DNA of 64,000 bases from an archaeon (GCA_043825775.1 JBDRRK010000013.1:6463-70462), one strand, 5' to 3'. Shown: positions 2,905 through 56,099, numbered from the stretch's first letter. Notes: generated by a model from the letters alone, not told the origin. Made by a program: numbers and translations.

Positions 2905-5776
2905 TTTTGTTTAATAATCTCCATACTAAAAGTACTATTAATAGTGCTAAAATTAATGAAAGTGATACAATACTTATTAATTTTGTCTTTTCTTTGAAGA
3001 AACCAGGTTCTCTTTCTTCTTCTTCAAGAATTTCAACAATCATATCCTCTTCTGGAGGGTATTCACTTGGTGTTTCCTCAATTACTGATTCTTCTGTTAT
3101 TGCTGTTATTGCGAAGTATGAGAATCCAGGTGTTGTTGCTGCATAGACATATGAATCATTTTCAACTCTTATGTATCTTGTTGACAATTCTTCCCATGAT
3201 GTTGTATATCTTTGTAATACTATATCTTCTTTGGTTACATCATTATCTCTAATCCAAGTTTTTAAAACTTTAAATTCTAGTTCTCCATTTGAAATATCTT
3301 CATTATCAAAGTTTGTTGTTGTTATTTCTAGATATTGATATAATATTCCTTTAGGACTTAATACTATTGTTTCTTCTAAGGCTTCAACTTTTACTTTTAT
3401 ATTTGCTAACTCCTTATTTACATCTATATCTACATGAGTAATAGGTATTAATAGATTATTTATTGAAAAGGAAATAGGGTTTTCTGCTGATGCTGATTCA
3501 ATGATTTGGGTTACTGATGTACTTGTTCCACTTCCTCCGCCACCTCCACCACTAGAACCTCCACCAGAACCTCCAGGACTTCCACTATTTGGTGATACTG
3601 GTGTTGGTGTTGAAATGTTAAAAGTTCTTTGTTCAGACATGTTTTGATTGTTTGCTGAGTCTGTACAATTAGTATACCAAGTATAATTTTCAATAGGATA
3701 AGATTTTGTAAAAGAGCCTGTAGCTGAAGCATCAGTTGCATTTATTGTAGAATCAATAATTAATGAACAATTATCTATACTATTTGTATCTGTAACTCCA
3801 TATTGGAATGTTATCTCTTGTAGACTTGAAGAATAAATTTGTTTGTCTGCTGGAGATGTTAATGTTATTGCTGGTTTTATTGTATCATAGATTCTAGTGT
3901 AGTTTGCAGAGGCGTATACTGATTGTGTTTTATTATTAGTAGATAAACAGTTCCAAGAATAAGTTCCATCAGTTGGGATTATATAGGAGAAAGAGGATGA
4001 ATTAGTTGCCCCTTGTTTATCTGTTGTTTCATTGTAAACTAAAGATGTTGAATTCCAAATACTAAATGTTACATTTGCTAACTCTGCTGTTTCATTAGCT
4101 ATGCTTGAACATGCGAAGGAAGTTGGATTTGTATTTGTTATTGAGTTGTCTGCTGGTGAAGTTAATGTTGTTTGCATTGCTTGGGCTATAATTAAGGTAA
4201 AGTTTTCAGTTGCATAAGCTTCATTGTTGTTGTAATCTTTTGCTAAACAATTCCAGTAATATGTTCCAGTTGTTAAACCAGTTACATCAAAATCACTAGA
4301 GTTTGTTGTTCCTGTTGTTGTGTTTGTTTGATTATTGAATAAATATGTTGAGTTCCAAATTTTTAGTGTTATGTTTGAAACATAAAAATCAGATACATTA
4401 CATGAAAAGGTTTGATTTGCACTTCCATCATTTGTGTTATTTGCTGGGGATGTAAGTGTTACATTTGGTTGATCTATATCTAATGCGGCTATTGCTTTGT
4501 AAATATCAATTCTTGGGAAAATCCTTCCAGAATTTGCAGAGTCATCTATTGCTAATCCTGTTTTATTAAGAGTACTTTCAATTTGTTGGGTTGTTTTTGT
4601 TTGTCCAGAAAGGTTTAGGTATTGGTTCATTAAAATTATTGCTCCTGCTGCATGTGGAGCTGCCATTGAAGTTCCATACTTTCCAGTTGTTCCTCCTAGA
4701 TAATTTAATGAGGTTACTGTATTTCCTGCTGTACCACCTGGTGCAAGTAAATCAGTAAGAGAATTTCTTTCTACATATGATGGAATTGTATCTGCTCCTT
4801 TATCTACTGAACCAATTGCTGTTGCATTTTCAATACAAGCTGGAGTTCCAATTGTAGTTGTTGTTCCAGAATTTCCAGTTGCTATTGTGATTACAACATT
4901 TTGATCTATTGCATCTTGTATTGCAGCTGCCATTGTTGGATAGGCTGAATCACAGTAACTTGAAAATGCTCCTCCTCCTAAAGAAATGGTTATTACAGAG
5001 ATATTATATGTTGCTGCATTATCTGAGCACCATTGTATTCCTTCTGTTATATCACTAATTAATGCTGAACCAGAAGAATTTGTTACTTTCATCGCGATGA
5101 AATTAACTTCAGGAGCCATACCTAATGCTGATGTTCCATTTGCACCAACAATTCCAGCTACATGTGTTCCATGACCTTGGTCATCTTCTGCATTGTTAAG
5201 TTCATTAGTGTTATCAGAGCAACATCCTCCTGAACCTAAATCAGTTACATCACAATAACAGTATTCTGCAACTATTCTTCCTTGTAAAGATTCATGAGTT
5301 GAATTTATTCCAGTATCAATAACACATACTGTTTGGCCTAGTCCAGTAAGATTTATGTTGTATAATTGTAAAGCATGTACTGTATCTGTTTCAATTTGAG
5401 GCAAGGTTGTTGCTAGTTGAATGTTTAATACTTCATCTTCTCTAATAGAAGTTATATCTTCTTGTAAAATATCTTTAAGTTCTTGTTCATTAATTGTTGC
5501 AGAGTAAAAATCTTCTGATATTTCATCTAATTCAATGTTTAAATCTTCAGGAGAATCTGTTTCAATTATTACTTGTACATCTTTTTCTTCAATTTGATCT
5601 ACCACTTCAATATCAATAAAAATTTGTCCTTCATCAATATTTTCTGGGATCTCTTCAGCTATTACAAAAATTGTAATTTTATCTGATTTACTATAAAATA
5701 GTTTATCTTGAAAAACACCCAAAGTGGAGACTAATAAAAAAATAACTATAATTAATATTATAATCTTCCCCCTCAT
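2846..5776 (-). CDS. Membrane-anchored subtilisin (S8) protease with Ig-like repeats and PGF-pre-PGF domain
   Basis: Signal peptide; triad VIDTG, HGTHVAG, GTSMAAP; three LTSPA(N/D) repeats; Gly/Ser linker; TTPGFSYFAI; C-terminal TM. Confidence 0.9.
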   Translation of the reverse strand: MRGKIIILIIVIFLLVSTLGVFQDKLFYSKSDKITIFVIAEEIPENIDEGQIFIDIEVVDQIEEKDVQVIIETDSPEDLNIELDEISEDFYSATINEQELKDILQEDITSIREDEVLNIQLATTLPQIETDTVHALQLYNINLTGLGQTVCVIDTGINSTHESLQGRIVAEYCYCDVTDLGSGGCCSDNTNELNNAEDDQGHGTHVAGIVGANGTSALGMAPEVNFIAMKVTNSSGSALISDITEGIQWCSDNAATYNISVITISLGGGAFSSYCDSAYPTMAAAIQDAIDQNVVITIATGNSGTTTTIGTPACIENATAIGSVDKGADTIPSYVERNSLTDLLAPGGTAGNTVTSLNYLGGTTGKYGTSMAAPHAAGAIILMNQYLNLSGQTKTTQQIESTLNKTGLAIDDSANSGRIFPRIDIYKAIAALDIDQPNVTLTSPANNTNDGSANQTFSCNVSDFYVSNITLKIWNSTYLFNNQTNTTTGTTNSSDFDVTGLTTGTYYWNCLAKDYNNNEAYATENFTLIIAQAMQTTLTSPADNSITNTNPTSFACSSIANETAELANVTFSIWNSTSLVYNETTDKQGATNSSSFSYIIPTDGTYSWNCLSTNNKTQSVYASANYTRIYDTIKPAITLTSPADKQIYSSSLQEITFQYGVTDTNSIDNCSLIIDSTINATDASATGSFTKSYPIENYTWYTNCTDSANNQNMSEQRTFNISTPTPVSPNSGSPGGSGGGSSGGGGGGSGTSTSVTQIIESASAENPISFSINNLLIPITHVDIDVNKELANIKVKVEALEETIVLSPKGILYQYLEITTTNFDNEDISNGELEFKVLKTWIRDNDVTKEDIVLQRYTTSWEELSTRYIRVENDSYVYAATTPGFSYFAITAITEESVIEETPSEYPPEEDMIVEILEEEEREPGFFKEKTKLISIVSLSLILALLIVLLVWRLLNKNAEYRRTGSNRRGNVQGKK

Positions 5777-5811
5777 GTATTTAACTTAAGTAAATTGATA
5801 TTTAATTGTTT

Positions 5812-6165
5812 CTATTTTATAAAATTAAAACCATCAAAATGAATTTCTGTATCATCAGAACCATAAACTCTTTGAACTTCATATAATCCTTTTGTCCAAA
5901 TTGTTCCACTAGGTCCTACGTAATGAGTTGCTTCTAGAATTATTATTGCTGCTAAAGGTCTTGATAAGTTTCCATTTCCTTTTGTTTCTAATAAAGGAAT
6001 TACACCTTCTAGCCAATAATTTCTTTGACCTTGTTTTAGAAATTTATATACTCTTGCAGGCCTTAAATCTTTTGGGATACATTCTTCTAAACCTCTTCTT
6101 CCTTCATTAAATTCTCTAATGTTTCTTAATGCTAGATCTGGATTAAATTCAACTTGTATTCCCAT
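5812..6165 (-). CDS. Hypothetical protein
   Basis: 117-aa ORF filling the gap between flanking genes; no recognised motif. Confidence 0.6.
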   Translation of the reverse strand: MGIQVEFNPDLALRNIREFNEGRRGLEECIPKDLRPARVYKFLKQGQRNYWLEGVIPLLETKGNGNLSRPLAAIIILEATHYVGPSGTIWTKGLYEVQRVYGSDDTEIHFDGFNFIK

Positions 6166-26743: not shown

Positions 26744-28549
26744 ATGGCTAAAAAATCCTTAAAAAAACCAGTAAAGGTAGAGAGTCCTTTAAATCTTCCA
26801 AATTTACCCAAATTAACTCCTGAAGTGCAGGAAAAAATGGATAAATTAAAGGTTAAATTGGACAAATATAAAGACGAAGTTCTGAAAAAATTTGATAAGT
26901 ATATTATTGGAATTTCACTATTACCTCCACAAATTCCTAAGCAAGGACAAAAACCAGTTGATACTAAAGAGGTTCATATCTTTACTCTTGTTGATGATGG
27001 TGATGTTAAGAAGATGGGCAAGGGTGAATTGATTATGAGGATGACTGATATTACCAATAAAATTGCTAGTGATATTGATAAGGATTTTAAACCTCAGGTT
27101 ATGCTTATTTCTGAAGTAAAGGAGGCTTGTTTTGATGGAAAATGGGATTTACTTAAGATGATTGCAACTTCTGGGATTATTTATGATAGAGGTTTTTTAG
27201 GAGCTATTAAAGTTTCAGATGTTCACAAGGATATGGCTGTAAAGAAATTTGAAAAGTATGTTATTAGTTATATTGCTGTAGGATCTTTATTTAGAGGAGA
27301 TGCAAATCCAAATGATATTGATGTTGCAATTGTTATTGATGATACTGATGTTAAGAAAATGTCAAGATTGGAATTAAGAGATAAATTAAGAGCTATTATT
27401 CAAAATATGGGCTTTGAAGCTTCACAAGTTACTGGAGTTAAAGCACAGTTTCATATACAAACATATATTCTAACTGATTTCTGGGATTCATTAAAGGATG
27501 CTAATCCTGTTATTTTTACAATGCTTAGAGATGGTGTACCTCTTTATGATAGAGGTGTATTTATGCCTTGGAAATTATTATTACAGATGGGTAAAATTAA
27601 ACCTAGTCCAGAAGCAATTGATATGAATATGGAAATTGGAGATAAATTACTTGCAAGAACTAGACAGAAATTATTATCTGTTGTTGGAGAGGATATGTAT
27701 TATGCAATGTTGAATCCTGCACAAGCAGCTTTAATGTTGTATGGAGTTCCACCACCAACTCATAAAGAAACTGCTCCTTTGATGGAAGAAATTTTTGTTA
27801 AGAAAGAAAAGTTGTTGGAACAAAAATATGTTGATTTTGTTGCAAGAGCTGTGAAATCATTTAAAGATATTGAACATGGCAGAGTTAAATCTGTAAGTGG
27901 TGCTGATATTGATAATTTATTGAAAGATGCTGAAGATTACTTGAAAAGAATTAAAAAATTATTTGAAGAAATTGAGAAAAGAAGAGAGAGAGAAAGTATT
28001 GTAGAAATACATGATACTTGTATGGGGTTAGCAAAGGATTTAATTGGAAAGAATGTTGCTGAATCAAAAGTATTGAGTGAATTCAAAAAAGTTTGTGAAA
28101 AAGAAAAGATTCCAAACTCTTATGTTAAAGTTATTAAAGATGTTATACAAGCAAAGAAAGATTATGTTTCAGGAAAAATGTCAAAACAAGAAATGAATAA
28201 GATTAAGAAAGAGGCTAGAAATTTTATTAGAATAATTGTTGAACATTTACAACGGAAAAAAATGCATGATATTGAAAGAGTTAGATTTAGATTCAAATAT
28301 GGTAAGAAATTTGGAGAGATTGTTCTATTGAATGGAAATGCTTATATTGTTAAAGATTTGGAGAAGAAAGATCAGCTGTTTAAGGCTAAGATTAATAAGG
28401 ATGGGAGCCTAGAAATGGCTAAAAAGAGCTCTTTAGAGGAAATGGAGAAGGAAATAGCTAAAGGATTTGGACAGAAAATCTTTATAAATGATAAGATTTT
28501 TCAAAGTCTGAACCAAATCGTTGGTAAAGATGTGGAGATCATGATTTAA
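26744..28549 (+). CDS. Tandem nucleotidyltransferase-domain and HEPN-domain protein
   Basis: VGSLFRG...DIDVAIVIDD NTase motif; an earlier degenerate copy (LVDDGDVKKM vs VIDDTDVKKM); YYAMLNPAQAALMLYG HEPN-like helix. Confidence 0.75.
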   Translation: MAKKSLKKPVKVESPLNLPNLPKLTPEVQEKMDKLKVKLDKYKDEVLKKFDKYIIGISLLPPQIPKQGQKPVDTKEVHIFTLVDDGDVKKMGKGELIMRMTDITNKIASDIDKDFKPQVMLISEVKEACFDGKWDLLKMIATSGIIYDRGFLGAIKVSDVHKDMAVKKFEKYVISYIAVGSLFRGDANPNDIDVAIVIDDTDVKKMSRLELRDKLRAIIQNMGFEASQVTGVKAQFHIQTYILTDFWDSLKDANPVIFTMLRDGVPLYDRGVFMPWKLLLQMGKIKPSPEAIDMNMEIGDKLLARTRQKLLSVVGEDMYYAMLNPAQAALMLYGVPPPTHKETAPLMEEIFVKKEKLLEQKYVDFVARAVKSFKDIEHGRVKSVSGADIDNLLKDAEDYLKRIKKLFEEIEKRRERESIVEIHDTCMGLAKDLIGKNVAESKVLSEFKKVCEKEKIPNSYVKVIKDVIQAKKDYVSGKMSKQEMNKIKKEARNFIRIIVEHLQRKKMHDIERVRFRFKYGKKFGEIVLLNGNAYIVKDLEKKDQLFKAKINKDGSLEMAKKSSLEEMEKEIAKGFGQKIFINDKIFQSLNQIVGKDVEIMI

Positions 28550-30111: not shown

Positions 30112-30313
30112 TTTAATGAGTAGAAGGGATAATTGTTTATATAGTTTTTTGTTGATTTTAAAAGGAAGTCATTTTTGGCTTATTTTCAGAAAAAGTATAG
30201 TAAACTGTTGTTCTTTGATTTATATGATTGAGAATATAGGTTTTATTTTAAATTAGAAAGGTTTTTATATAACTAGTTTTCATTAGCAAATTGTTCTTTA
30301 AAAAATTATAGAG

Positions 30314-31120
30314 ATGGTAAAAAAACAGAAAACAATAGGGATATTGGGAGGACTTGGACCTGAAGCTTCTAATTGGTTAGCCCAAGAAATAACTAGAATT
30401 ACTCCTGCAACTAAAGATCAAGATCATTTAAGAGTAATTCATTATAATAATCCAAAGATTCCAGATAGAACAGAAGCAATTGTTAAAGGTGGACAAAGTC
30501 CGGTTTTAAATCTTGTACAAAGTGCTGAAGTTTTAGAACAAGCTGGAGCTGATTTTATTATTATCCCCTGTAACACTTCTCATTATTATCTTAATGATAT
30601 TCAAAAGTATATTGATATTCCTATTATTAATATGATTGAAGAGACTGCAAAATATATTGTAAATAATTATCCAAATGTTAAAGTTGTTGGTTTGTTAGCT
30701 ACTGCTGGAACTGTAGAGTCTGGAGTTTATGATGAAATTTTTACAAAATATAATATTGATATTATAACTCCAACACAAGAAGATCAAGAAGAATTTGTAA
30801 CTGAAGGAATTTATGGAGAAAAAGGTGTTAAAGCAGGGTATATAGAGTATCCTCAATTATTATTTGAACATATGGCAAAAAGTTTAGTTGATGATGGTGC
30901 TCAAGTTGTAATTACTGGTTGTACTGAAATTGGTTTAGCAATGGATCAACAAAAAGTTAATTACAAATTAATTGATCCTGCAAAAATTTTAGCACACGTT
31001 GCTGTAGAAAAAGCAATTAATGAACAGATTAAAAGTGAGATTACTACTTTTGTAGGGGAGTTATTTGTTCAACCTTATTATTTTTTTAGAAGAAAAGCTT
31101 TGGAGATATTTGAAAGATGA
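30314..31120 (+). CDS. PLP-independent aspartate/glutamate racemase
   Basis: GILGGLGP, IPDRT, IPCNTSH and TGCTEI (both catalytic Cys present). Confidence 0.92.
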   Translation: MVKKQKTIGILGGLGPEASNWLAQEITRITPATKDQDHLRVIHYNNPKIPDRTEAIVKGGQSPVLNLVQSAEVLEQAGADFIIIPCNTSHYYLNDIQKYIDIPIINMIEETAKYIVNNYPNVKVVGLLATAGTVESGVYDEIFTKYNIDIITPTQEDQEEFVTEGIYGEKGVKAGYIEYPQLLFEHMAKSLVDDGAQVVITGCTEIGLAMDQQKVNYKLIDPAKILAHVAVEKAINEQIKSEITTFVGELFVQPYYFFRRKALEIFER

Positions 31121-32013
31121 GAATAGCAATTTTACATCAAGATTTAGAATGGGCTGAAGAAGAATTACAAAGACAATTTCAATCAAGAGACGTGCAAACT
31201 AATTTGTATGATGTTAGAAAGACCTTAGTTAGTGATTTAGTTGATTATGATTTAGTATTGAATAGAGTTTATGCATCTGTTGCAAATAGAAATTGGAGAG
31301 ATAATCTTACTACATTAGAATTGTTACAAAGTTTAGAAAACCAAGGTATTCCTTGTTTGAACTCATTACAAACAACTAGAGTAGATTATAGCAAATCTTA
31401 TTCAGCAGAAGTTATGAGAGATGCAGGAATTTTAACACCGAGAACAATGCTTTTAAATGGGGAAGATAAAGAATCTGCTTTAGAATTTGGTTTAAGGTTA
31501 GGTTATCCTTTAATTGTAAAACGAGATATGGGTGGAAGAGGAAAAGATTTAGTTAGGGTAAATAATGAAACAGAATTAAAACAAACTTTAGATCATATGT
31601 TGAGTCCAGAATATAGAGCTCAGTATGATGCAGGTATTGCAATTCAAGAATTTCTTCATAGTGTTGGAAATCATGATTGTAGAATTGCTATTATTAATGG
31701 TAAATTAGCTTTTGCATATACAAGAACTTTAATTCCTGCAGGTTCAACAAATGATAGTTGGTTAGCTTCAGTTTCAAGAGGCTCTGAAATGTTTGATTAT
31801 GATCCAAAACCTGAAGAAGTTGCAGTTGCATTAAAAGCTACCAAATCTATTGGTGCTTTATTCAATGAAGTGGATATGGCTTTTACAGAAGATGGAATTG
31901 CAATTATTGAGAATAATCCTACTCCTAATTATGATGAAACTGAGTTACATAGAACTACTGCTGTTGCTAAATTAATTACTGAAAAATATAGAAAGGGAGA
32001 ACTTAAGATCTAA
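31117..32013 (+). CDS. RimK/LysX-like ATP-grasp ligase
   Basis: LNRV, PLIVKRDMGGRG, QEFL, DCR, ASVSRG, EVD, IENN. Confidence 0.88.
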   Translation: MRIAILHQDLEWAEEELQRQFQSRDVQTNLYDVRKTLVSDLVDYDLVLNRVYASVANRNWRDNLTTLELLQSLENQGIPCLNSLQTTRVDYSKSYSAEVMRDAGILTPRTMLLNGEDKESALEFGLRLGYPLIVKRDMGGRGKDLVRVNNETELKQTLDHMLSPEYRAQYDAGIAIQEFLHSVGNHDCRIAIINGKLAFAYTRTLIPAGSTNDSWLASVSRGSEMFDYDPKPEEVAVALKATKSIGALFNEVDMAFTEDGIAIIENNPTPNYDETELHRTTAVAKLITEKYRKGELKI

Positions 32014-32025
32014 GTTGGGAATAAA

Positions 32026-32949
32026 ATGGATGTATGTGTAAGTATAAATTCAAATGTTGGTGACAGTTTTACTAAAAATAATTATTATTATGGCTCTTCT
32101 TCTCAATTAGCTGATGAATTTCTTAATAGGGGTCACAATCTTACTATTGTTCATCCTCAAGATTTAATAATGCTTCCAGGTGGATTACACACAAAGAAAT
32201 TCTTAAAAAAAGTAGATGGAGAATTAATTGCTACAAGAGGAGGTTATGTAAGACCTGAAGTATTTTTTATTAGATCCCTAGGGGAAAATTCTGAAGATCC
32301 AAGAAAAGCAGCACATAATCTTCTTTCTCGGTTATCATATTTAGAAGAACAAGGAATACTAGTTCTTAATTCCACAGAATCAACTCAATACGAGGATAAA
32401 GTTACTCAAAAAAATATTCAGGCTCCATTTATTCCAAATTTTAGTATTGAGAGTATAGGAGAATTGGAAGCACTTGTCAGAGATGAAAAAGAAGGTATAA
32501 TCGCAAAACCTATTGTTAGTTTTAGAAGAATTGGTGTTGTTTATTTAAGTTCATCTGAAGATGTAAAGGCGTATTTTAAGAGTGATGATAAAGTAAGAGA
32601 TTATGTTTTTGAGAGATTTATTCCTGATCAACTAGAGAGAAGATTTATATTTTTAAATGGTGAAATTATTGCTACTAGAGAAGTAAGGTTAAAAGGCCTT
32701 CCTGGAAAAGAAGTTTCTGATGTAGTTGATTGTTGTATGGATTTAACTTCCAGTGATAAAAAAATAGTTCAAAGTGTTATTGAGCAGACTGGAATGTTTT
32801 ATGGTTGTGTTGATTTTAGAGGAGATTATGTCTTAGAAATTAATGGTTCTGGAACTGGAACATTATGTACTTCTTTTGATGGATTAAGAGAATATGCTTT
32901 AGAGAATCAAATTGTAAAAGCAGTAGAGGAAAAAGTTTATGGAAAATGA
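32026..32949 (+). CDS. Glutathione-synthetase-like ATP-grasp protein
   Basis: FIR, VLN, EDK, IAKP, ERFI, ERR, VDFRGDYVLEIN. Confidence 0.75.
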   Translation: MDVCVSINSNVGDSFTKNNYYYGSSSQLADEFLNRGHNLTIVHPQDLIMLPGGLHTKKFLKKVDGELIATRGGYVRPEVFFIRSLGENSEDPRKAAHNLLSRLSYLEEQGILVLNSTESTQYEDKVTQKNIQAPFIPNFSIESIGELEALVRDEKEGIIAKPIVSFRRIGVVYLSSSEDVKAYFKSDDKVRDYVFERFIPDQLERRFIFLNGEIIATREVRLKGLPGKEVSDVVDCCMDLTSSDKKIVQSVIEQTGMFYGCVDFRGDYVLEINGSGTGTLCTSFDGLREYALENQIVKAVEEKVYGK

Positions 32950-33803
32950 AAACTGCTTTTTTAATTTCACCTTCAGGACATAGTAGTAAAAAAGAACTAA
33001 AAAATTCTTTAATTTTATTAAAAAAATTGGATTGGAAAGTTAAATATTTGCAATCAATTAATGATAAATTCTATTATTATGCTGGAGATTACAAAAGAAG
33101 AGCAAATGAAATAAATACTGCATATAAAGACAAAGAATCAGAGATAATATTTTGTATTAGAGGTGGAATGGGTGCTGTTCATACTCTTGATTTTTTAGAT
33201 TATGAAACAATTAAAAGATCTGGAAAAATCTTAGTGGGTATGAGTGATATTACTATCTTATTAAATACAATATATCAAAAAACAGGTCAAAGATGTCTTC
33301 ATGGTCCAAATTTAAAAAAATCTCTAGGTACATTTAATAAAAAAACAATTAGTTGTTTGTTTGATAATATAAACAAAAGAAATTTTACTGTTAAATATAA
33401 AAATAAAGATATCTTTAAAGAAGGATATGTAAAAGGAGATATTATTGGAGGAAATATTAGTCTTTTAGAAAGATCTTTAGGAACAAAATATGAAATAAAT
33501 ACTGATAATAAAATTTTATTCTTAGAAGAATATGATATGAGAGATAGATTAATTTATGATATTCTCTGGCAATTAAAATTAGCAGGTAAATTTAATAATG
33601 TTAAGGGAATAATTTTAGGATACTTTACAAAATGTGGAAAAGATATAACTCCTTATATTCATGATTTTTTTAAAAACTTCAATTGTCCAATAATCCAAAA
33701 TCAACCAATTGGTCATGAAGAACCCAATCTAACTATTCCTTTGGGAGAAATATGTATTATTGATACAAGTAAAAAAGAATGGAAAATAATATTTAAAAAA
33801 TGA
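32946..33803 (+). CDS. LD-carboxypeptidase (S66, LdcA/MccF family)
   Basis: ISPSG, RGGMG, GMSDIT (Ser), GGN, LFLEE (Glu), GHE (His). Confidence 0.92.
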   Translation: MKTAFLISPSGHSSKKELKNSLILLKKLDWKVKYLQSINDKFYYYAGDYKRRANEINTAYKDKESEIIFCIRGGMGAVHTLDFLDYETIKRSGKILVGMSDITILLNTIYQKTGQRCLHGPNLKKSLGTFNKKTISCLFDNINKRNFTVKYKNKDIFKEGYVKGDIIGGNISLLERSLGTKYEINTDNKILFLEEYDMRDRLIYDILWQLKLAGKFNNVKGIILGYFTKCGKDITPYIHDFFKNFNCPIIQNQPIGHEEPNLTIPLGEICIIDTSKKEWKIIFKK

Positions 33804-34393
33804 AACCCTACAAACAGACAACTGAATACACTACTGCAGCATCTTCCATATTAACAATTCTATCACATTTCAATAAACTAAAACCTACAGAAGAAAATGA
33901 ATTAAAGATTTGGAGGGCAAGTGTTACCTTACCAACAAGGGCTTCTTCAATATATTCTCTAGCACTTATTGCAAAGGAGCTTAACCCTATTATAATTGTA
34001 GAAATAAAAGAATATGATTTTCCAGATTATAGGTTTTATAGATATTCTAAAGAAGATATTGAAATAGCTACAAAGTCCTCAGATATACATTTACAGCAAG
34101 CTATAAATCATAATATAGAAATTAAAGAAGAAGAAATAACAATAAAACAAATTAAACAATTACTAAAAGAAAACATACTTCTCTTAAGATTAAACACAAA
34201 ACCAATTAGAAATTCAAATAGAAATAATTCTAATTTTCTCGTCGTATATGACTTTAATAATAATTATAAAATAATAGATCCTTTACAAGGAGATTTAGAA
34301 GTAACAGAACAAATTTTCAATGAAGCTTTCAAAACTCTTGCAACAAAAAAACATAGAGCTCACAAAATGATTGTTTTTAAAAAGACTCTTTAA
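33800..34393 (+). CDS. Peptidase C39-like (papain-fold) protein lacking the catalytic Cys
   Basis: YKQTTEYTTAAS versus the usual Q-x4-T-C-G; NFLVV...IIDP. Confidence 0.65.
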   Translation: MKPYKQTTEYTTAASSILTILSHFNKLKPTEENELKIWRASVTLPTRASSIYSLALIAKELNPIIIVEIKEYDFPDYRFYRYSKEDIEIATKSSDIHLQQAINHNIEIKEEEITIKQIKQLLKENILLLRLNTKPIRNSNRNNSNFLVVYDFNNNYKIIDPLQGDLEVTEQIFNEAFKTLATKKHRAHKMIVFKKTL

Positions 34394-34436: not shown

Positions 34437-34532
34437 ATGAAAAAGAAGTTGATTAAGCTTCTACAAAATCCAGAAGCTAAAGAAGAGGTGAACATAGAGG
34501 AATATGAGGACCTGTTGCATGTTGCAATGTAG
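34437..34532 (+). CDS. Unannotated 31-aa ORF upstream of ftsZ
   Basis: MKKKLIKLLQNPEAKEEVNIEEYEDLLHVAM; TTTAAAAA box about 25 nt upstream. Confidence 0.4.
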   Translation: MKKKLIKLLQNPEAKEEVNIEEYEDLLHVAM

Positions 34533-55025: not shown

Positions 55026-56099
55026 ATGGATTTTTTAGTACAAAACGCAATGCAAAATGCAAACAATTTTCAGACACAAGAAACTAACATCGGACAAGCA
55101 AATATTAAGGTATTTGGCTGTGGTGGTGGTGGAACTAATGTTACTAATTGGTTATATAAAAAAGGTATCCAGGGTGCAGAGATAGTTGCATTGAATACTG
55201 ATAAACAACACTTAGATCTTGTTGAAGCAGATAAAAAACTTCTAATTGGTAAAAATTTGACTAGGGGACTTGGTTGTGGAGGATTTCCTCAAAAAGGAGC
55301 TGAAGCAGCTAAAGAACAAATGTCAGAAATAAGACATATGCTTGGAAATGCAGATATGGTATTTATTACTGCTGGAATGGGTGGAGGAACTGGAACAGGA
55401 TGTGCACCAGTTGTCGCGAAAGTTGCAAAAGAATTAGGGGCAATCGTTATTGGTAGTGTTACAATGCCTTTTTCAATCGAAAGAGCGAGAATTGATAAAG
55501 CAGAGTTTGGATTGCAACAACTGAGAGAGGAATGTGACACAGTCATAGTTATTGACAACAATAGATTAGTACAAATTGCTGGTAACTTACCAGTACAACA
55601 GGCATTTGCAGTTGCAAACGAATTGATTTCCACAATGATTAAAGGAATTGTAGAGATAATTGCAGTGCCATCGTTGGTTAACTTAGACTACGCAGATGTA
55701 AAAGCTATTATGGCTAATGGTGATGTATCTGTGATAGGAATTGGCGAAAGTGATTCAGAACAAAGAGTCGAGGAAGCAGTGAGAAGAGCATTGTCAAATC
55801 CATTGTTAGAAGTGTCATACGAAGGAGCCACAGGCGCTCTGATACATGTAGCAGGTGGAAATGATTTGACATTGGATGAAGTGAGTAAGGCTGGAAATAT
55901 GATAACTGAAGCATTAGATGCTGATGCGAATGTTATCTGGGGAGCAAGAGTTAACGAAAACATGAAGGGAAAGATTAGAGTAATGACAATAATAACAGGA
56001 GTTAATTCCCCATATATTTTGGGAAAAGGTGCTCATAAACAGAAAGCTGCTCAAGCAGTAGCTGTTTCAAGAGAACTAGGAATCGACTTAGTTAGATAG
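55026..56099 (+). CDS. ftsZ: Cell division protein FtsZ (copy B)
   Basis: GGGTGTG, NLDYAD; AGGGGG RBS. Confidence 0.97.

Follow-up and report, generated by a model that had tools for sequence, protein, structure and literature searches.

The deoxyribonucleic acid analysed here is a stretch of 64,000 nucleotides (nt) from an archaeal genome (GCA_043825775.1, contig JBDRRK010000013.1, 6463–70462), hereafter called the window and numbered from its first letter. It originated from a groundwater metagenome and carries, between positions 30314 and 34393, a cassette of five genes for a predicted aspartate racemase, two ATP-grasp ligases, an S66 peptidase and a papain-fold protein. The window had a G+C content of 30% and a gene content of the DPANN type (rpl35ae, rpl10e, two ftsZ genes and archaeal-type neighbours), and close homologues of its genes were found in metagenome-assembled genomes (MAGs) of Woesearchaeota and Pacearchaeota. 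The single metatranscriptome belonging to that groundwater study did not include the organism. The features of the cassette were as follows.

30254–30271, + strand: putative archaeal promoter, read from the sequence as a purine-rich stretch resembling a BRE (transcription factor B recognition element) and then TTTATATA
30314–31120, + strand: g1, aspartate racemase of the two-cysteine type independent of pyridoxal phosphate, 268 amino acids (aa) (TIGR00035, 1JFL)
31117–32013, + strand: g2, RimK-family ATP-grasp ligase, 298 aa, first ligase of the cassette (PF08443)
32026–32949, + strand: g3, GshB-like ATP-grasp ligase, 307 aa (fold and invariant residues)
32946–33803, + strand: g4, S66 serine peptidase of the LdcA/MccF family, 285 aa (PF02016, PF17676, catalytic triad)
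33800–34393, + strand: g5, DUF3335 papain-fold (C39-like) protein, 197 aa (PF11814)

The coordinates of the open reading frames (ORFs) bore out the layout given in a preliminary description of this locus, namely five co-oriented genes with 4-nt ATGA start/stop overlaps at 31117, 32946 and 33800 and one 12-nt gap (32014–32025) between g2 and g3. Overlaps of this kind are ordinary in operons; the cluster could be regarded as more than a chance arrangement because the cassette recurs in unrelated genomic contexts. An intergenic region of 202 nt (30112–30313) precedes g1 and contains the putative promoter, whose predicted TATA-like element TTTATATA (30264–30271) lies approximately 45 nt 5' of the racemase ATG. 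The theoretical pI was acidic for g1 to g3 (approximately 5) and basic for g4 (9.4) and g5 (9.2). No hydrophobic segment was detected in any of the five proteins (maximum KD19 < 1.5); they are small and soluble, so their expression should be easy. The cassette looks native, since G+C content and skew at 30–34 kb were the same as in the rest of the window, and the candidate of a foreign island was rejected on this basis. A defence system was likewise rejected, as PADLOC returned no matches for all five proteins.

Families and catalytic residues of the encoded proteins

The g1 protein exceeded the cut-offs of both the Asp_Glu_race model (PF01177; 140 bits against 31) and TIGR00035 (225 bits against 93), and it matched the aspartate racemase of Pyrococcus horikoshii (1JFL) with 215 bits and approximately 50% identity. 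Its residues C86 (IIIPCNTSH) and C203 (ITGCTEIG) aligned with the catalytic Cys82 and Cys194 of that enzyme. These two cysteines, together with R52 and K173, were invariant in the eight racemases aligned, and both were kept in all seven cassette-linked ones, which upholds the earlier claim of a racemase with an intact cysteine pair. The P. horikoshii reference in this comparison was copied from the 1JFL alignment, and its first residue and its final two were supplied by hand. R52 and K173 of g1 are presumably the counterparts of the residues that bind the substrate side chain in the P. horikoshii enzyme. The Pyrococcus enzyme lacks a C-terminal extension of 30–50 aa (approximately 35 aa in g1) that is present in most of the cassette-linked racemases. 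The cysteate racemase model CuyB (NF052483) was also passed by g1 (221 bits against a cut-off of 190), and for that reason its substrate can safely be described only as an acidic amino acid, which by homology is most likely Asp.

Both Pfam domains of the S66 peptidases could be detected in g4 (Peptidase_S66, PF02016, 106 bits; S66C, PF17676, 102 bits). The Ser/Glu/His triad reported in the preliminary description was recovered intact as S100 (GMSDIT), E194 (LFLEE) and H257 (IGHEE) upon alignment to 5USD. Matches in the PDB, 5USD/4E5S and MccF, scored 88–91 bits with the triad aligned, while the best NCBIfam match was LdcA (NF008424) at 118 bits against a cut-off of 378, so that g4 is no LdcA equivalog. 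As a separate observation, the cassette S66 protein of one Pacearchaeota MAG (locus L022, 6909–8759) was fused to a C-terminal DUF1861 domain (PF08950, 128 bits).

Since LdcA was the best NCBIfam match of g4, a salvage or detoxification of murein peptides was considered, in which stem peptides imported from bacteria lysed by the archaeon would be trimmed by the S66 enzyme as by LdcA, released D-Asp would be converted to L-Asp by the racemase for nutrition and the fragments would be re-used or modified by the ligases. The ykfABCD genes of Bacillus subtilis offer a precedent, since murein-peptide catabolism there involves a papain-fold peptidase together with an S66 enzyme and an epimerase. However, the LdcA score lies far under its cut-off, g5 lacks the catalytic residues of a peptidase, no transporter or amidase recurs beside the cassette, and a catabolic route does not need the two ATP-consuming ligases that form the invariant part of the cassette. 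We therefore hold this explanation to be improbable. Neither the operon and its surroundings nor the related loci with annotated flanks contained genes for Mur ligases or MraY, and murein synthesis is not known from archaea.

The MccF-like proteins, being the top PDB sequence matches of g4, also bring in a toxic peptide antimetabolite for which the S66 protein would provide MccF-like self-immunity; ATP-grasp L-amino-acid ligases do make antibiotic dipeptides. Against this, neither the operon nor the related loci with annotated flanks encode an exporter, a precursor peptide or an adenylating enzyme of the MccB type; g4 is short (285 aa), with an alignment that is gapped across the inter-domain region of MccF; and PADLOC gave no match. 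The cassette also lies among housekeeping genes and its inheritance is apparently vertical. This role is judged very unlikely. The peptidoglycan cross-bridge, polymer and microcin-type immunity roles that had been raised for the locus gained no supporting evidence.

The first ligase, g2, passed the Pfam RimK domain model (PF08443; 59 bits against 21) and failed the RimK subfamily model TIGR00768 (102 bits against 143). Its best PDB relatives were LysX (3VPD/5K2M) and RimK (7QYS), and when the catalytic core was aligned with these enzymes the ATP-binding Lys, the RG(S/G) motif and the D...E-N Mg ligands were found to be kept. Homologues of g2 occurred in Woesearchaeota and Pacearchaeota, in Patescibacteria and in one gammaproteobacterium; the homologue in a Solemya symbiont stands alone, with no cassette around it. 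Sub-threshold matches to MptN (86 bits) and CofF (42 bits) raise the tailing of a cofactor or another carboxylate that is not an amino acid, by glutamate tails as added by MptN and CofF or in the manner of N-acetylaspartylglutamate or beta-citrylglutamate, with trimming by the S66 enzyme. Such RimK-family enzymes are archaeal; the scores, though, lie far below the respective cut-offs of 350 and 300, and cofactor biosynthesis genes do not recur near the cassette. DPANN lineages of this kind are also not known to have the methanopterin and F420 pathways. Such a function is judged very unlikely.

The second ligase, g3, belongs to a rare family, with 22 clusters among 5.8 billion proteins, and was only weakly detected by known models. 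It scored 20 bits with GSH-S_ATP (PF02955), below the cut-off of 23, and 31–35 bits with the GshB equivalog models, whose cut-offs are 272–408; a profile search gave a full-length but weak match to Escherichia coli GshB (E = 0.06). The AlphaFold2 model (predicted local distance difference test, pLDDT, 92.8) nevertheless had the three-domain ATP-grasp fold of GshB, and Foldseek aligned it over its full length with RimK (5ZK6) and GshB (1GSA) at template-modelling (TM) scores of 0.63–0.68. The scores against 1GSA and 1GLV were 0.67–0.68, with RimK equally close, and the fold also resembles those of RimK-RpsF and of graspetide ligases. Residues K161, E196, E204, R206, D263, R265, E271 and N273 were invariant in the family. 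As judged from these alignments, the ATP-grasp Lys and the Mg ligands are kept in both g2 and g3. Recent paralogy of the ligases was rejected: g2, g3 and an alternative first ligase found at other loci were mutually undetectable by BLASTP, so the three types are not recent duplicates.

The g5 protein passed the DUF3335 model (PF11814; 39 bits against 25). Its AlphaFold2 model (pLDDT 96.4) was papain-like, and the Foldseek matches were the C39 double-glycine peptidase domains (6MPZ, PCAT1) and the phytochelatin-synthase-like 2BU3. Profile alignment with 6MPZ placed Thr12 at the position of the catalytic Cys and Asn145 at that of the catalytic His; the protein had been described earlier as Cys-less, and the loss was thus found to extend to the His. 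Among 42 aligned archaeal homologues, position 12 was Thr in 36 and Cys in six, while position 145 was Asn in 37 and His in none. Because both residues are lost, g5 is probably not a cysteine peptidase. The archaeal clade comprised 108 clusters with a mean column identity of 55%, and a total of 259 relatives were retrieved from 1.84 billion representative proteins. R47 and K84 did not vary, R78, R81 and R186 hardly did, and these residues lay within motifs such as LPTRASS and FPDYRFYRY.K.D; R130, K134, R137, K183 and K184 were also invariant or nearly so. On this evidence the clade appears to have given up cysteine-peptidase chemistry, yet to remain strongly constrained. The simplest and most likely role is the binding of a ligand or partner, and an acidic ligand would fit the invariant basic residues.

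Distant bacterial relatives of g5 retain the catalytic Cys and His (TCGP...PHWVV), and many distant DUF3335 proteins carry a fused GNAT, AstE/AspA or methyltransferase domain. One GNAT-DUF3335 gene, in Azospirillum, runs into the beginning of a downstream RLAN-RimK ATP-grasp gene, and on a Sinorhizobium plasmid the DUF3335 gene is the last of a peptide ABC-importer operon. Among eight distinct archaeal contexts, g5 adjoins an amide-ligase-type gene in six, and the ligase is not adjacent in two. In other Woesearchaeota, a GCS2-like ligase gene immediately precedes the disabled DUF3335 gene (L003, L005) or follows it (L038). These contexts and fusions suggest that DUF3335 proteins keep company with amide ligases in archaea and bacteria alike.

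At two of the archaeal loci (L037, L038), the disabled DUF3335 gene follows a gene for a 434-aa protein. In these Woesearchaeota as a whole, GATase_4 and glutaredoxin genes are often close by. The 434-aa protein gave weak matches to circularly permuted ATP-grasp and eukaryotic glutathione synthase models (E = 0.002–0.008) and no profile match in the PDB, and its assignment as a ligase is unproven. The clusters that join the disabled DUF3335, GCS2, 434-aa protein, GATase_4 Ntn-hydrolase and glutaredoxin genes (L003, 6756–10562; L038, 3674–9578; L037, 3638–8389) look like a second module related to gamma-glutamyl or thiol peptides.

Recurrence of the cassette in Woesearchaeota and Pacearchaeota

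Loci were gathered from the neighbourhoods of g5 and g3 homologues, followed by a g3 profile scan of genome and metagenome collections, and all ORFs of all loci were searched with the five window proteins. A g3 gene was carried by 23 distinct loci of Woesearchaeota and Pacearchaeota. A second ATP-grasp gene, either of the g2 type or of a third, GshB-like type, lay directly upstream of g3 at every locus with upstream sequence (20/20), and an S66 gene directly downstream at 18 of 22. The aspartate racemase gene stood directly in front of the cassette at 7 of the 15 informative loci, and g5 accompanied the g3 cassette in the window and in L001, a relative with 70% identity, and at no other g3 locus. 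The conserved core is therefore formed by two ATP-grasp ligases and the S66 peptidase, with g3 as the universal component. In most diverged loci the S66 protein outscored the ligases, with 310–458 bits compared to 129–238 bits. The flanking genes differ from locus to locus (RNase J, asparagine synthase, S3Ae, GatB, a GTPase and others), which indicates that the cassette travels as a unit.

The preliminary description had treated the five genes as one set and had named a lack of co-occurrence elsewhere as the result that would speak against a common pathway. The genes were found together in many DPANN genomes; the five-gene set as such is not a conserved unit, and what recurs is the ligase–ligase–S66 core with the racemase adjacent in about half of the cases.

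In a maximum-likelihood phylogeny of g3, the ten loci without a racemase formed a single clade (support 99/95), and the racemase-linked loci filled most of the other deep branches with either type of first ligase. This distribution indicates that the racemase tracks g3 and the S66 gene rather than the first ligase. On the tree, the racemase-less loci are one derived clade, and the racemase-linked form of the cassette may be the older one.

An all-against-all comparison of ORFs of at least 30 aa from 22 loci revealed no further recurrent partner. A conserved carrier or precursor peptide gene was not recurrent across these loci either, antisense shadows and an ftsZ-linked ORF of four loci apart, and the conserved precursor gene beside the ligase that marks graspetides, a class of ribosomally synthesized and post-translationally modified peptides, was not present in the same set.

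These neighbourhoods also bear on a reversible tagging of protein C-termini, in which the ligases would add acidic residues including D-Asp, the S66 enzyme would remove the tag and g5 would read it, as RimK acts on S6 or TTL/TTLL on tubulin; a ribosomal protein, FtsZ or a small acidic downstream ORF product would be the candidate substrates. The closest solved relatives of g2, LysX and RimK, act on protein C-termini, and the likeness of the g3 fold to RimK-RpsF and graspetide ligases as well as the invariant basic patch of g5 would agree with such a role. Moreover, at four loci the cassette is followed by an acidic ORF of 31–33 aa and then ftsZ, and it adjoins rpl35ae-rpl10e at three loci and lies within approximately 3 kb of them at L016. 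However, ftsZ and the small ORF are limited to 4 of 22 loci with shared synteny, the neighbours elsewhere are unrelated, the second ftsZ of the window has no small ORF, and no precursor or carrier gene recurred in the all-against-all comparison. The racemase implies a free amino acid as substrate, which is compatible with tagging and with peptide synthesis alike. On balance, protein tagging is thought unlikely.

The small ORF merits a description of its own. It lies between the cassette and ftsZ in the window (34437–34532, + strand; MKKKLIKLLQNPEAKEEVNIEEYEDLLHVAM) and at L001 (8665–8763), L010 (8852–8953) and L036 (approximately 1290–1390), and is absent 5' of the second ftsZ of the window (55026–56099). 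Its product is basic at the N-terminus (M.KK[LF].K.L) and acidic in the middle, with a conserved [VIM]AM at the C-terminus. The ORF cannot be tied to the cassette because it is present solely where ftsZ follows; its product could be an FtsZ-associated micro-protein and is less likely a ligase substrate. Another shared neighbour is a 600-aa nucleotidyltransferase-like protein (window 26744–28549), whose gene adjoins rpl35ae-rpl10e in a syntenic block close to the cassette at four cassette-bearing loci (the window, L001, L010 and L016).

Further individual loci departed from the common arrangement. L008 represents the one locus type with the two ligases alone, without racemase and S66 genes; immediately upstream, in the opposite orientation, are the genes for a PP-binding carrier protein (5187–5456, – strand) and an amino-acid permease. 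On a metagenome contig (L027, 5048–5998), the gene for the RimK-type ligase is split into two ORFs (5048–5290 and 5294–5998), which may reflect a pseudogene or faulty assembly. Directly 3' of the cassette at L020 (7815–9896), a 694-aa protein combines GATase_7 and Asn_synthase domains with a diphthamide-synthase-like PP-loop domain; this asparagine synthase fusion of a single locus recalls the AsnO of a bacterial osmoprotectant pathway considered below.

Proposed pathway and relation to known systems

Taken together, we favour, at about even odds, a cytoplasmic cassette of Woesearchaeota and Pacearchaeota for the ribosome-independent synthesis and the turnover of a short acidic peptide, probably one ending in D-Asp. 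In the proposed scheme, whose order of steps we infer, the racemase g1 would convert L-Asp to D-Asp, and the first ligase (RimK-type g2, or the GshB-like type in sister lineages) would form an amide bond via an acyl-phosphate on a small-molecule acceptor, giving an intermediate of the dipeptide type. The universal g3 would then add the C-terminal residue in the fashion of GshB. This residue would most likely be D-Asp, since the racemase tracks g3. The S66 enzyme g4 would take the C-terminal D-residue off again at the L–D bond, for turnover, recycling or control of the peptide level. The g5 protein, which lies outside the core, would most likely bind the acidic peptide or one of the ligases as a carrier, sensor or regulator. 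The core idea of the preliminary description, a ribosome-independent D-amino-acid ligase pathway with its own S66 hydrolase, is retained in this scheme. That description had left the residue open between D-Asp and D-Glu; D-Asp or a close acidic analogue is favoured here because of the close homology of g1 to an aspartate racemase of known function (215 bits with 1JFL).

Several points weigh against this pathway. Inference of substrates from family names is weak because g2 scores below the RimK subfamily cut-off and g3 far below those of GshB. The substrates of the RimK, LysX and MptN relatives are proteins or cofactors and not free amino acids, and the S66 family, which cuts L–D bonds at the C-terminus, also acts on non-peptide substrates, as in the case of MccF. 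Since the CuyB model was passed by g1, the D-amino acid might be one other than Asp; the racemase is not adjacent at 8 of the 15 informative loci; and Thr12 of g5 could in principle serve as a nucleophile.

Among characterised systems, the nearest in its logic is racD-aslA (Rac-Aslfm) of Lactococcus and Enterococcus, which consists of an aspartate racemase and an ATP-grasp D-aspartate ligase (PMC4155827). In both cases the racemase gene is in an operon with an ATP-grasp ligase, which in racD-aslA uses D-Asp via an acyl-phosphate. However, racD-aslA has a single ligase whose acceptor is the L-Lys of a peptidoglycan precursor, whereas the cassette, in archaeal hosts, combines an S66 hydrolase with two ligases unrelated to each other, one RimK-type and one GshB-like.

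The GshA/GshB pair is comparable in other respects: g3 shares the full-length fold of GshB (1GSA, TM 0.67) and its Mg/ATP residues, and it stands after another amide ligase, an order which suggests a stepwise synthesis from dipeptide to tripeptide. In contrast to that pair, the first enzyme of the cassette is an ATP-grasp protein in place of GshA, the ligases are accompanied by a racemase and a carboxypeptidase, and the score of g3 with the GshB models is far lower (31–35 bits against 272–408). A more speculative extension, to which only slender odds are given, would make the product a lineage-specific glutathione-like tripeptide cofactor capped by D-Asp. Its first ligase would be modular (RimK-type, GshB-like or GCS2-type) and its last step the common GshB-like one, the S66 enzyme would set its level, and DUF3335, shared with the GCS2/GATase_4/glutaredoxin clusters, would act as a peptide-handling receptor.

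The single components differ from their known relatives in a similar manner. With the RimK/LysX/MptN family, g2 has in common the RimK domain and a catalytic core that aligns with LysX and RimK, but it falls below the subfamily cut-off (102 bits against 143), and neither an S6- or LysW-type target nor RimA/RimB partners of g2 were found. With LdcA and MccF, g4 has in common both S66 Pfam domains and the Ser/Glu/His triad, but it is no LdcA equivalog, is shorter than MccF and is set in an archaeal ligase operon instead of among genes for murein recycling or microcin. The bacterial DUF3335 (PF11814) peptidases resemble g5 in the papain-like fold, the Pfam family and the neighbouring amide ligases; in contrast, the archaeal clade has changed Cys to Thr and His to Asn and has gained the LPTRASS and FPDYRFYRY.K.D motifs. 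The Cys-less C39-like domains of ABC transporters are a further comparator of g5, with the papain-like fold in common.

In a wider frame, amidoligase systems linking ATP-grasp, GCS2 and GNAT ligases with peptidases have been predicted in general terms (Iyer et al. 2009, as cited in PMC10318531). The operon for the osmoprotectant N-acetylglutaminylglutamine amide in Pseudomonas and Sinorhizobium (asnO-ngg-peptidase) couples the ligase of a dipeptide metabolite to a co-transcribed peptidase (PMC8070244). The latter is alike in logic alone, having a non-ribosomal peptide ligase and a dedicated peptidase gene, and unlike in its enzymes, in its product and in the lack of a racemase. The cassette belongs among such amidoligase-plus-peptidase operons. 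No description of it was found in the literature on DPANN and Woesearchaeota racemases, S66 peptidases and ATP-grasp ligases, a survey that stopped short of the full text of Iyer et al. (2009). The present analysis adds the Cys/His-less DUF3335 partner and its separate link to GCS2-type ligases, the coupling of active bacterial DUF3335 counterparts to RimK-type ligases, and the single derived clade of racemase-less cassettes. The g5 family also illustrates clearly the conversion of a peptidase into what is probably a binding protein, still in the company of amide ligases.

The genomes of DPANN archaea are very small and encode little biosynthesis. A non-ribosomal peptide pathway is likely to be important to them, since it is conserved and costly in ATP and occupies three to five genes in such small genomes. 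The peptide may act as a host-directed signal or a protein tag, as a compatible solute, or as a cofactor for redox reactions or metals. Archaea have long been recognised to contain free D-aspartate and aspartate racemases whose purpose was not clear, and the cassette offers a directly testable use for archaeal D-Asp.

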